Positions 60,062 to 63,659 of a DNA stretch of 64,000 nt are shown here, piece by piece. Numbering within the stretch: the stretch's first letter is position 1; each line of letters begins with the position of its first letter. The notes beneath the pieces are model-generated. The model saw only the letters and a list, made by a program, of their open reading frames with translations. It was not told the DNA's origin and ran no database searches. Location: positions 11,931 through 75,930 of the forward strand of contig JAQWMR010000013.1 in NCBI GenBank assembly GCA_029246685.1, written 5' to 3'. This DNA comes from Acidimicrobiales bacterium. Its GTDB lineage: Bacteria > Actinomycetota > Acidimicrobiia > Acidimicrobiales > Aldehydirespiratoraceae. The position numbers and the translations under genes are program-made.

Positions 60062-61141
60062 TCAGCGACGGCGGGGCGGATCCACGAGCTGACGGCTCGC
60101 TCGAAGTTGGCCGCACGCCGCATCGATCTCGGTGCCTCGCGTGCGGCGGATGGTCACGTTCACGCCGAGATCCTCGAGGTGGTCTCGAAAGGAGCGCACG
60201 CCAGCCGCAGACGTCCCTCGGGTGAGGTAGCCGGGCGTCGGGTTCAACGGGATGAGGTTGACATGGGCGCGCAGTTGTCGACAGATCACGGCGAGCTCTT
60301 CGGCGTCGATCGCCTGGTCGTTCACCCCGTCGATGAGCGCCCACTCGAATGACAGACGCCGGTTCTTCGCGTCGATGTAGCGCCGGCACGCATCGACGAG
60401 ATGGTTCAGCGGGTATTGCCGGTTGATCGGGACGAGTTCGTCGCGTAGGTCGTCATTCGCGGCATGGAGCGAGACCGCGAGGTTGACCGGGAGTGCCTCG
60501 GTCGCAAGACGCTCGATTCCGGGGATTACCCCGACGGTCGACAGCGTGATGTGGCGGGCGCCGATTCCCAACGCGTCGTGGATGCGCTCGACGGCGGCCC
60601 ATGTGCGGTCGTAGTTGGCGAACGGCTCGCCCATACCCATGAAGACGATGTTGGATACCCGGCGCGGCGCAGAGGTACGCCGGGCTTGGATGACCTGTTC
60701 GACGATCTCGCCCACCGAGAGGTGACGGTCGAATCCGCTCTGGCCGGTGGCGCAGAAGCCACAGCCCATGGCGCAGCCCGCCTGCGACGACACGCACACG
60801 GTCGTGCGGTCGTCGTAGTGCATGAGGACGGTCTCGATCGTGTGCCCGTCGTGGAGCCGCCACAGCCACTTCACGGTGTCGCCCTCGTCGCTGACCGACT
60901 CGGTCTCCGGGGTCAGGCCCATCGGCAGCAGGTCGCCGAGGCGGGCCCGCAGGGTCTTCGGGAGATTTGTGAGGTCCTCGAGCTCGCCTCCCTGTTCGTG
61001 AATGCCGTCCCATACCTGGTCGACGCGGTAGCGCGGCTCGTCAGCGAGCACCTCGGCGAGCTCGTCGCGGTTCACGTCGTAGCGAAGCGTCGGGCCGTCA
61101 CGTCGGGCGCGGCCGGCCGCCTCGAGCGGTGTGCCGGTCAT
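60062..61141 (-). CDS. rlmN: Dual-specificity RNA methyltransferase RlmN
   Basis: CVSSQAGCAMGCGFCATG, MGMGEP, SLHA, IDAACGQL. Confidence 0.95.
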   Translation of the reverse strand: MTGTPLEAAGRARRDGPTLRYDVNRDELAEVLADEPRYRVDQVWDGIHEQGGELEDLTNLPKTLRARLGDLLPMGLTPETESVSDEGDTVKWLWRLHDGHTIETVLMHYDDRTTVCVSSQAGCAMGCGFCATGQSGFDRHLSVGEIVEQVIQARRTSAPRRVSNIVFMGMGEPFANYDRTWAAVERIHDALGIGARHITLSTVGVIPGIERLATEALPVNLAVSLHAANDDLRDELVPINRQYPLNHLVDACRRYIDAKNRRLSFEWALIDGVNDQAIDAEELAVICRQLRAHVNLIPLNPTPGYLTRGTSAAGVRSFRDHLEDLGVNVTIRRTRGTEIDAACGQLRASRQLVDPPRRR

Positions 61142-61833
61142 CGGGTCAGCCGATAGGCGCGGTTGGTGTGGTGCCGGCTGAACCCGATGCCGGCATAGGT
61201 GGCGTTGGCCGGGTCGTTGTCGGACTCGACGTACAGCATCCCGTGCTGGAGGCCGTGATCGCTGAGCCACTCCAGTCCGGCGAGCGTCATGGGCTTGCCG
61301 AGGCCGCGGCCGTGAGCGCCCGGGTCGACGGCGATGACGTAGATCTCGCCGAGTGGCGGATCGTGCTCAGCGTGGATCTGGGTCCAGCAGAATCCGATTA
61401 GCCGGCCGTCCCTGTCGTGATCGTGGAGGAGTCGGAAGCCGTCGGCGTCGAACCAGGGCTCCTCCATCGTGGCCAGGACCGACTCACGGGTGAGGTCGCC
61501 CTGCTCGGGATGCCAGTGGAACGCCCGATTGTTCACGCCCACGAAGTCGTCGAGGTCATCGAGCGTGAACGCCCGCGTGACGAGGTTGCTTGCAGCGCTG
61601 GGCAGCGGATATCGCAGCTGCCAGAGGTCGCGGTACTGCTCGAACCCGAGGTCCAGTGCCGCGTCGTCGGCTGCGTGGTCGACCTCGCGGATCCATAGCT
61701 GGATCGAGCCGTCTTCGCATTCGTCGATCGCCGTCACGAGCGCGGCGCGAACGTCGAGCTCGGCGCGACGTTCCGAGACGTTGATCGTCCACCGGAATTC
61801 GCCCTCATTCGGTCCTTCCACAAGCAACGCCAC
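61138..61833 (-). CDS. mshD: Mycothiol synthase-like GNAT acetyltransferase (short N-terminal domain)
   Basis: AFHWHPEQG, GFCWTQIH, GEIYVIAVDP, GRGLGK, LYVESDN. Confidence 0.8.
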   Translation of the reverse strand: MALLVEGPNEGEFRWTINVSERRAELDVRAALVTAIDECEDGSIQLWIREVDHAADDAALDLGFEQYRDLWQLRYPLPSAASNLVTRAFTLDDLDDFVGVNNRAFHWHPEQGDLTRESVLATMEEPWFDADGFRLLHDHDRDGRLIGFCWTQIHAEHDPPLGEIYVIAVDPGAHGRGLGKPMTLAGLEWLSDHGLQHGMLYVESDNDPANATYAGIGFSRHHTNRAYRLTR

Positions 61834-61860
61834 GTCGGTCAGCGTAGCTAGTGTCACCGG
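61834..61860. promoter_or_regulatory. Back-to-back -10 elements for divergent leaderless mshD and nth
   Basis: TACGCT on - (61846-61841), 7 nt before the mshD GTG; TAGTGT on + (61849-61854), 6 nt before the nth ATG. Confidence 0.6.
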
Positions 61861-62502
61861 ATGGCCAAGCCCCGTAGTCCCAAGGGTCGAGCGCAACGCA
61901 CCCACGAGCGCCTCGTCGGCGAGTACCCCGACGCTGAGTGCGAGCTGGATCACCGCAACCCATTCGAGTTGTTGGCGGCGACGATCCTGTCGGCGCAAGC
62001 CACCGACGTCGGGGTGAACAAGGCGACGCCAGGGTTGTTCGCCCGCTTCCCCGATCCGTGGTCGTTGGCTACCGTCGACCCCGAGCAGGTCGAGCCCTAT
62101 GTCGACACGATCGGTCTCTTCCGGCAGAAGTCGAAGAGCCTCGTCGGCATGGCGCAGCTGCTGGTGGACGAATACGATGGGGAGGTCCCGAGTGCCATGA
62201 AGGACCTGACTCGGCTTCCGGGAGTGGGTCGCAAGACGGCGAACGTCGTGCGCAGCGTCGCGCTGAACCAGCCGGGACTCCCGGTGGACACCCACGTCAT
62301 CCGACTGTCGAACCTCCTCGGTATCACCACTGAGAGCAATGCCGTGAAGATCGAGATGGAGCTCAACCCGATGGTTCCGGCGATGGAACGTGGGCAGTTC
62401 AGTCTGCGAATGATCCTGCACGGTCGGCGCGTCTGTATTGCGCGGCGGCCTCAATGCGAGGATTGTGTCCTCAACGACTTCTGTCCGTCGAGCCGGGTCT
62501 GA
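61861..62502 (+). CDS. nth: Endonuclease III
   Basis: LSAQATD, LPGVGRKTANV, VDTH, C-x6-C-x2-C-x5-C Fe-S motif. Confidence 0.96.
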   Translation: MAKPRSPKGRAQRTHERLVGEYPDAECELDHRNPFELLAATILSAQATDVGVNKATPGLFARFPDPWSLATVDPEQVEPYVDTIGLFRQKSKSLVGMAQLLVDEYDGEVPSAMKDLTRLPGVGRKTANVVRSVALNQPGLPVDTHVIRLSNLLGITTESNAVKIEMELNPMVPAMERGQFSLRMILHGRRVCIARRPQCEDCVLNDFCPSSRV

Positions 62503-62617: not shown

Positions 62618-62626
62618 TGCTATATT
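62618..62626 (+). promoter_or_regulatory. Extended -10 promoter for the candidate sRNA
   Basis: TG-C-TATATT, with hairpin 1 beginning 7 nt downstream. Confidence 0.6.
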
Positions 62627-62632
62627 CACCTC

Positions 62633-62737
62633 CTGGCTGAGCGCCCGCCGCTCGGCCAGAATCGACGACGTAAGGGATCCGCCTCCCTGTGTCGTCATGG
62701 CGGCCGCTCTCGTTCACGAGGGCGGCCGCTGTCTTTT
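62633..62737 (+). ncRNA. Candidate three-hairpin small RNA with C-rich loops
   Basis: Hairpins at 62633-62659 (11 bp, loop CCCGC), 62664-62696 (13 bp with one bulge, loop UCCGCC) and 62697-62732 (16 bp), followed by CUUUU. Confidence 0.7.
62697..62737 (+). terminator. Intrinsic terminator
   Basis: GCGGCCGCTCTCG-TTCA-CGAGGGCGGCCGC followed by TGTCTTTT. Confidence 0.8.
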
Positions 62738-62769
62738 CGTGGACGGGCTCAGCGGCCAGACTCCTCGCC

Positions 62770-63420
62770 GTGCGCAACCGGATCCTGCTCCTCGTCGCTC
62801 TCGTAGCTGCCGGCGTCGCGTTCATCGTTCTGGGCGGCTGGGACTTCGTCAGCGACGGGGACCGGGTCGAAGAGTTCTTCACCGAGCGTGGCGCCCTCGG
62901 GCCGATCGTGTTCATCCTGATCATGTGGGCGCTCCAGCCGGCCGGCGTGCCCGGACTCGTGTTCATGGTCCCGGCCGCAGTCGTCTGGCCGCTCCCGACT
63001 GCGATAGCGCTCTCGTGGATCGGCAACATGGGCGCCTCCACGATCGCCTTCGTGATCGCGCGCTACCTCGCTCACGACTGGGCGCAGGAACACATGCCGA
63101 CTCGACTGAAGACGTGGGACGAACGGCTGTCCAATGGTGGACTCCGGGAGGTCTTTCTCCTCCGCGTCGTCACGGGCCAGCTCACCCCGGCGGACTGGCT
63201 GCTCGGTGTCAGCGGCGTGCGTCTGCGGACGTTTCTGCTCGGGACTGGACTCGGCATCATTCCGGGAATCGTCCTGGCGACGACGGTCGGTGGCAGCCTC
63301 GTCGATCTCATGGGGGACCGACAGACGCGGCTGCCGATCCTGCTCGGCCTCGCGGCCTTCGTGGTGATCAGGCGAGTGCGGCGGCGCCGACGGGTGGCCG
63401 AGATAGAAACGATCACGTGA
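62770..63420 (+). CDS. TVP38/TMEM64 (VTT/DedA superfamily) membrane protein
   Basis: GPIVFI...P..VPG, GASTIAFVIARY, FLLGTGLGIIPG. Confidence 0.85.
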   Translation: MRNRILLLVALVAAGVAFIVLGGWDFVSDGDRVEEFFTERGALGPIVFILIMWALQPAGVPGLVFMVPAAVVWPLPTAIALSWIGNMGASTIAFVIARYLAHDWAQEHMPTRLKTWDERLSNGGLREVFLLRVVTGQLTPADWLLGVSGVRLRTFLLGTGLGIIPGIVLATTVGGSLVDLMGDRQTRLPILLGLAAFVVIRRVRRRRRVAEIETIT

Positions 63421-63467: not shown

Positions 63468-63659
63468 TCAGGCGAGGTCTCGCGCTGTTGATCGGAGCCG
63501 CCGCTCGGCAGTGACCAACATCCGTTCGATCTCGTGGAGACGACCGATCAGCGGATCGTCGGGGTCCTCCGCGCGGCGTTCGGCGATCTTCCCGATGCGC
63601 GCGGCGGCGTCGGAGATGACGGTGGTGAGCGACGAGATCTCGGCGGCATCGGGGTCCAT
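63468..63659 (-). CDS. Small helical hypothetical protein
   Basis: 63 aa amphipathic two-helix ORF with a CAGACT -10-like element upstream. Confidence 0.6.
   Translation of the reverse strand: MDPDAAEISSLTTVISDAAARIGKIAERRAEDPDDPLIGRLHEIERMLVTAERRLRSTARDLA

Follow-up and report, generated by a model that had tools for sequence, protein, structure and literature searches.

Introduction

The described systems closest to the RNA element reported here are the 6C RNAs of Actinobacteria and the cuckoo RNAs of Alphaproteobacteria. 6C RNAs are defined by six or more C residues in each of two loops (PMC5014011), and for 6C of M. tuberculosis, chaperone-free pairing of the C-rich loops with G-rich mRNA has been reported, one loop being dominant (PMC6486639). 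Cuckoo, alpha-r14 and RSs0680 RNAs are described as 2-4 adjacent hairpins that share one loop motif on variable stems (PMC4615179). Two further RNAs of Actinobacteria serve for comparison, namely F6 of mycobacteria, which is reported to be SigF-dependent and located between fadA2 and fadE5 (PMC8557902), and the targets of ANTAR proteins, for which hexanucleotide loops with A1 and G4 are given (PMC8164766). In a search of the openly accessible literature, we found no small RNA described for Acidimicrobiia or Acidimicrobiales and no sRNA with CCGCC loops; the main text of PMC11109978 makes no mention of Actinobacteria.

Here we describe an element with twin CCGCC loops, located in a stretch of 64,000 nucleotides from an Acidimicrobiales bacterium (assembly GCA_029246685.1, contig JAQWMR010000013.1), which will be referred to as the window. 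Judged from its sequence, it represents an uncatalogued RNA family and likely a new small regulatory RNA of the C-rich-loop kind, the function of which we infer.

Structure and Extent of the Element

The element comprises 105 bases of the + strand (62633-62737) arranged in three hairpins, and lies 130 nt 3′ of nth and 32 nt 5′ of a gene encoding a VTT-domain protein (Table 1). A preliminary description of this locus had placed an extended −10 motif, with TG at 62618-62619 followed by TATATT, in front of three hairpins with the loops CCCGC and UCCGCC and a terminal TTTT, all of which were found at the positions given. The P3 hairpin itself covers 62697-62732 and is followed by TTTT at 62734-62737. 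A consensus promoter scanner found no −35/−10 pair at the element.

Table 1: Features of the element and its neighbouring genes (positions in the window).
Feature	Position	Strand	Evidence
mshD-like mycothiol synthase, divergent context	61138..61833	−	TIGR03448 above cut-off; start from own gene calling
nth (endonuclease III), context	61861..62502	+	TIGR01083 above cut-off
TANNNT-type −10 hexamer (TATATT), G at −2 in most cases	62621..62626	+	box in 121/145 homologues
Predicted transcription start	about 62632-62635	+	inferred from −10 box
Hairpin P1, loop motif CCCGCC at 62644-62649	62633..62659	+	fold; covariation; loop conservation
Hairpin P2, near-invariant loop, core UCCGCC at 62678-62683	62664..62696	+	fold; loop conservation; covarying lower stem
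Hairpin P3 and U-tract, intrinsic-terminator-like	62697..62737	+	terminator scan; covariation
VTT-domain gene, lineage-limited neighbour	62770..63420	+	PF09335
63-aa protein gene, convergent with the RNA	63468..63659	−	without Pfam or NCBIfam family

Folding of the region 62633-62738 yielded a minimum free energy of −69.6 kcal/mol (z −8.1), and none of 200 shuffled sequences was equally stable. Since P1 and P2 without the terminator hairpin still gave z −5.5, the stability signal is not due to the terminator alone. The − strand of the element folds 11 kcal/mol worse than the + strand. On the minus strand, positions 62626-62635 directly beyond the −10 box form a perfect Shine-Dalgarno word (AGGAGGTGA), which the homologues do not share and which lacks a start codon at a suitable spacing.

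Distribution in Acidimicrobiales

The element is present as a single copy in its own genome. With BLASTN, 25 of 36 relatives from the same family showed long matches (66-125 nt, E ≤ 4e-7); the 24 genomes of other families showed none. Two covariance models were then used in genome searches that scored just 25 candidates per genome and missed members: R1, built from 25 of these matching sequences, found the element in 42 of 151 genomes of the order, and R2, built from 53 sequences, found it in 25 of 151 genomes of the class, every one belonging to Acidimicrobiales, and in 6 of 151 genomes of a phylum sample, that is five of the order and one weak terminator-only match. Scores of members on R2 ranged from 35 to 124 bits. 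Examination of 27 nth loci from initially negative genomes revealed six with a member of at least 44 bits and four more with diverged CCGCC hairpins, and a deeper search recovered one further member in five genomes. For other orders, the model detected no member in the class sample or in five nth loci. Three near-complete genomes from the family to which the window belongs were likewise searched without success; two of them have nth and hisD adjacent, and the third carries an unrelated insert at this place.

A strict two-loop pattern matched 154 of 401 genomes of the order; its reversed control matches about 15 of the rows listed, and the pattern misses the variant of the window itself. A few of its matches arise by chance, two of them sitting 2 kb from a true copy in apparent rlmN coding sequence. 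A loose pattern applied to 301 genomes of the class was swamped by chance matches. In viral contigs the strict pattern gave no match and the loose one ten, none of which scored, and a metagenome scan added at least 120 pattern matches. In a named collection, 77 of the 80 matches listed scored with R2; the three failing matches, which include Micromonospora and Anaerolineae records, were rejected as chance. The record titles of the named carriers read Acidimicrobiales, Ilumatobacteraceae, Microthrixaceae, Acidimicrobiaceae or an unspecific Actinomycetota; Salinilacustrithrix flava (L148) is a named cultured carrier, and Ilumatobacter records are also among them. One full member (L156, 72.9 bits) derives from a record titled uncultured Bifidobacterium sp., for which mis-binning or a mislabel is possible. 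According to these searches, the element is a conserved, order-wide family spread across many families of Acidimicrobiales.

Two loci of unusual build were observed. In genome G274, a second copy (L226, 1501-1620, − strand) carries four UCCGCC repeats, is seemingly promoter-less and scores 40 bits on R2. This copy extends from the stop codon of a gene for a secreted-looking protein to the start of another gene, presumably surE-like as judged from its translation; it may represent a 3′-end-derived sibling RNA. L238 (2186-2261, + strand) is a two-hairpin variant in which the U-tract directly follows the second CCGCC hairpin, a build nearer to that of 6C.

Conservation of Loops, Stems, and Signals

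The homologue set consisted of 145 distinct sequences, 72 chosen by the loop pattern and the other 73 by similarity. In 123 of the 145 predicted folds, each of the two loops exposed a single-stranded CCGCC. Loop 2 reads exactly GGGATCCGCCGCC in 134 homologues, and loop 1 retains CCGCC in 137; among the 73 sequences outside the loop-pattern picks, which are still similarity-picked, CCGCC is found in loop 2 of all 73 and in loop 1 of 65. The loops of the family are 7-8 nt long and pyrimidine-led (P1 UCCCGCC or ACCCGCC; P2 AUCCGCCG), and their closing G-C pairs are invariant. The consensus of P2 is GGG-AUCCGCCG-CCC, from which the copy in the window deviates by G>U at 62684. Loss of the P1 loop motif with retention of its stem was observed in five members of the genus to which the window belongs, so that the loop of P2 is taken as the indispensable one.

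In a plain MAFFT alignment of 25 sequences, compensatory changes occurred in 19 of 35 pairs and 96% of the cells were paired. Related sequences can beat a shuffle control, but in slid controls pairing dropped to 36-55%. A model-fitted alignment of 53 sequences, which leans toward the structure, showed covariation in 31 of 35 pairs, with compensatory change at 8 of 9 pairs of P1, a covarying lower stem of P2 and covariation at all 14 pairs of P3. One locus (L025, terminator damaged beside an N-run) was excluded from alignment A2; the same genome is present in A3 as L051. Conservation in relatives thus reaches beyond the terminator hairpin, as both the loops and the stems of P1 and P2 are kept. 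G-U pairs exceed A-C pairs (108:20 and 119:59), and therefore the + strand was taken as the RNA.

A TANNNT box ending within the 7-base span before hairpin 1 was present in 121 of 145 homologues, compared to 167 of 9818 control windows (1.7%), and 78 of these 121 have G at −2. The TG extension occurs in 13 of the 121, so that the extended −10 motif of the preliminary description is retained as a TANNNT-type box without its extension. At the 3′ end, 85 of the 145 homologues have five or more T within 8 bases, and the U-tract is weak in 60. The spacing of the loops shifts by single bases and is spread across all three phases (49/50/31 modulo 3, n = 130); no reading frame is therefore maintained. 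A 75-aa ORF on the minus strand across the element was rejected on account of frame-breaking length changes in the homologues. With a conserved −10 box, covarying stems, C-rich loops, a terminator and no frame kept, the earlier view of a stand-alone non-coding unit is borne out.

A second proposal made for this locus was an anti-Shine-Dalgarno-like CCUCCC in P2. The sequence is present at 62682-62687, but half of it belongs to the stem, and just 2 of 145 homologues have it, CCGCCC being the reading of the family at this place. The central G of the conserved seed CCGCC mismatches GGAGG, which speaks against this reading and makes a general anti-Shine-Dalgarno action unlikely.

Genomic Context

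Neighbouring genes were counted at 134 loci with sufficient flank. In 109 loci nth precedes the element in the same orientation, and in 24 it was not found; mshD lies upstream on the opposite strand in 108, and hisD follows downstream in 73. The 63-aa gene is located downstream and convergent in 54 loci, and the VTT gene is downstream in just nine. A convergent gene often stands between the element and hisD. In L075 the RNA alone is inverted in place, and in G040 nth is found elsewhere while the RNA remains between rlmN and the his genes. Persistence without nth, inversion and changing downstream genes argue that the element is not the tail of nth or a leader of the VTT gene or hisD.

Transcripts were sought in four metatranscriptome runs. 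No transcript of the element was observed in them. Two runs, both of the oligo-dT type, partly covered the element with contigs of depth 2-3, which cannot fix start, strand or RNA origin; these contigs cross the terminator into the VTT gene and may be DNA.

We consider it very unlikely that the element acts in cis, as the 3′ tail of nth, as a leader or attenuator of the VTT gene or hisD, or merely as a shared terminator. The element has its own conserved −10 box, the proportions of loci with the VTT gene or without nth and the inverted RNA of L075 do not fit a fixed partner, and a convergent gene often separates the RNA from hisD. The folds offer no alternative antiterminator, the three stems being mutually compatible, and the loops fail the A1/G4 hexaloop rule of ANTAR targets. 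What a cis element would explain is the association with the nth/mshD-hisD locus and, in several relatives, the position of P3, which abuts the convergent 63-aa gene; the contigs passing the terminator into the VTT gene would also fit, though they are uninformative about origin. P3 may double as a terminator for the 63-aa gene.

That the element acts at the DNA level, is mobile, or is an antisense or antitoxin RNA to the convergent 63-aa gene is hardly credible, even though its inverted repeats are strong and the small gene is convergent in the 54 loci mentioned. The single copy, the lack of scoring matches in viral contigs and the G-U strand asymmetry all argue against it; moreover, a complementary site in the small gene is kept in at most 9 of 67 cases, and the 63-aa product reads as a charged helical protein and not as a hydrophobic toxin peptide.

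Several features of the surroundings deserve mention. The 63-aa protein (63468-63659, − strand) is conserved and helical, and many Acidimicrobiales encode it in the interval from the RNA to hisD; for this protein, the Atlas shows Actinomycetota hypothetical clusters only. According to our own gene calls, the divergent genes mshD and nth have start codons about 27 bases apart (61833-61861), and each seems to be leaderless. In L236, a near-perfect inverted repeat of about 60 nt and a gene for a secreted protein are inserted between nth and the RNA, the −10 box of which falls in the last codons of the inserted gene.

Search for Targets and Proposed Function

Opening of the P2 loop core costs about 0 kcal/mol, and the accessible seed is only 5-7 nt long in a G+C-rich genome. 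The dominant ribosome-binding word in the window's genome is GGAGG, and about a fifth of the genes look leaderless, both by our own calls. All target screens were based on our own rough gene and start calls and, except for the neighbour screen, covered −40 to +30 of shared genes in one or two genomes, so that their power is low. A duplex scan of a single genome with accessibility gave a best net energy of −10 kcal/mol and seed sites in 952 of 4024 called genes, with no standout target. When the co-conservation of words was compared in 879 orthologue pairs (G000/G146), Shine-Dalgarno words ranked first and third for shared position and GGCGG ranked 51st of 1024 five-letter words. Intersecting the energies of two genomes left two shared strong sites where about one was expected; these two hits, which are at chance level, are presumably a predicted methyltransferase and pyrG, as judged from their translations. 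Among four neighbour genes no conserved complementary site was found.

Repeats in CsrB and RsmY are binding sites for CsrA. By this precedent, the two near-identical GG-N-YCCGCC-R-CC hairpins could be repeated sites for one RNA-binding protein on a stand-alone decoy or scaffold RNA, an explanation that is possible, if rather doubtful. It would account for a motif that is present twice with invariant closing G-C pairs, for the four UCCGCC repeats in the second copy of L226 and for target screens that gave no mRNA. On the other hand, 8 of 145 homologues do without the P1 motif, and YCCGCC hairpins are not enriched genome-wide, with 20 intergenic occurrences compared to 9-36 for six control words; this count weighs little, as the scan missed the element's own hairpins. 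In addition, a pairing role of C-rich loops has been tested for an actinobacterial sRNA, as reported in PMC6486639.

We consider that the element is probably a stand-alone sRNA acting in trans, with CCGCC as seed for pairing with GG(C/U)GG sites in mRNAs. The class features of a trans-acting base-pairing sRNA are present as sequence signals, namely promoter and terminator signals, lack of coding capacity and a conserved exposed seed. The unit of promoter, two hairpins and terminator would be transcribed as a separate small RNA of about 105 nt, whose two CCGCC loops would nucleate pairing with unpaired GG(C/U)GG in mRNAs, and pairing would then block translation or trigger decay of the mRNA. 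Of the two hairpins, P2 would provide the principal seed, with P1 in an accessory role, since the P1 loop has been lost in some lineages and the P2 loop kept. Because the central G of the seed poorly matches canonical GGAGG, the set of sites (GGCGG/GGUGG) would be narrower than for 6C or cuckoo RNAs. Transcription, action in trans, base-pairing and repression are all proposed here by analogy with 6C of M. tuberculosis, and pairing with G-rich mRNA had likewise been put forward by analogy in the preliminary description. More speculatively, and with considerable doubt, one may think of a modular CCGCC-loop RNA system of Acidimicrobiales, with the element as its founding member, that ignores the Shine-Dalgarno sequence and either titrates an RNA-binding protein or reads GG(C/U)GG, for instance in G-GUG-G start contexts, extra copies such as that of L226 being 3′-end-derived siblings.

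Judged from record titles, metagenomes from soil, freshwater and the sea commonly contain Acidimicrobiales, and the family, which covaries strongly and is order-wide, is ready for an Rfam model. If a trans-acting pairing RNA is the true reading, the family would add to 6C and cuckoo RNAs another instance, seemingly of separate origin, in which C-rich loops are repeated, and a seed avoiding the canonical ribosome-binding site would offer a test of chaperone-free sRNA specificity in high-G+C, leaderless-rich bacteria. Natural comparisons are provided by species that have lost the P1 loop and by genera that have lost the whole RNA.

Comparison with Known RNA Families

Rfam 15 gave no gathering-level match in the whole window, and at E ≤ 10 only sub-threshold noise for the element and 10 homologous loci, in agreement with the preliminary description, which had assigned the RNA to no named family. 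Matches to FinP on the opposite strand (19-29 bits, cut-off 45) were rejected as noise. The 6C model RF01066 (gathering score 47 bits) produced no match at E ≤ 10 over the element or the 10 homologous loci. One weak 6C-like match was observed in a genome of the window's family (G036; L038, 1501-1570, − strand), with 33 bits against the cut-off of 47 and one UCCUCCCCC loop.

6C (RF01066; B11 of M. tuberculosis, cgb_03605 of C. glutamicum) resembles the element in being an actinobacterial RNA of about 80-110 nt with two C-rich loops. A dominant loop for pairing (PMC6486639) and a housekeeping-type promoter (PMC5014011), as reported for 6C, can also be likened to the element. The loops, however, read YCCGCC and do not contain the six or more C of 6C, the element has a separate terminator hairpin whereas in 6C the second C-rich hairpin comes last, and a LexA-box-like motif, set as a difference from 6C, is found upstream of just 1 of 145 homologues. 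6C adjoins a HAD-hydrolase/ssd gene pair, and the locus of the element differs. The gene names ssd and tadA come from our own reading of translations and are to be taken as presumed.

It is quite unlikely that the element is a highly diverged 6C RNA whose CCCCCC loops changed to CCCGCC and which gained a terminator of its own. RF01066 gives the element no score, and on R2 no genuine 6C locus exceeds 22 bits, compared to 35-124 for members. The carrier G146 keeps the 6C-type HAD-hydrolase cluster, where the gap measures about 80 nt and an RNA of this kind is missing, the new RNA lying 1.6 Mb away. Apart from the two C-rich loops in both RNAs, a common origin would agree with the absence of 6C above cut-off in all 61 relatives and with the L238 variant, which uses its second CCGCC hairpin as terminator as 6C does. 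In two further genomes of the phylum, nth is followed on the same strand by 6C, at distances of 9.3 and 15.3 kb; this synteny was rejected as a sign of kinship, as the RNA stays with mshD/rlmN-hisD where nth moves or is lost and as the 6C-type locus of G146 is without the RNA.

F6 (SfdS) of mycobacteria is, like the element, an actinobacterial sRNA of about 100 nt, and the preliminary description had listed it among the C-rich-loop sRNAs; the element differs by its TANNNT −10 box, its mshD/nth-hisD context and the lack of an Rfam match. ANTAR-target RNAs of Actinobacteria share with it two adjacent hairpins with a short linker, whereas the loops of the element are pyrimidine-led with 7-8 nt and no downstream gene is constant. 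The arrangement of adjacent hairpins with one loop motif and variable stems is shared with cuckoo, alpha-r14 and RSs0680 RNAs, but the loops of cuckoo RNAs are reported to carry the anti-Shine-Dalgarno sequence CCUCCUCCC (PMC4615179), compared to CCGCC in the element with a partial CCUCCC in 2 of 145 homologues. Moreover, cuckoo RNAs belong to Alphaproteobacteria, whereas the element is found under Acidimicrobiales or related labels, is nearly always single-copy and has no Rfam match. On the basis of these comparisons, the element is built like 6C and cuckoo RNAs and is a member of neither family.
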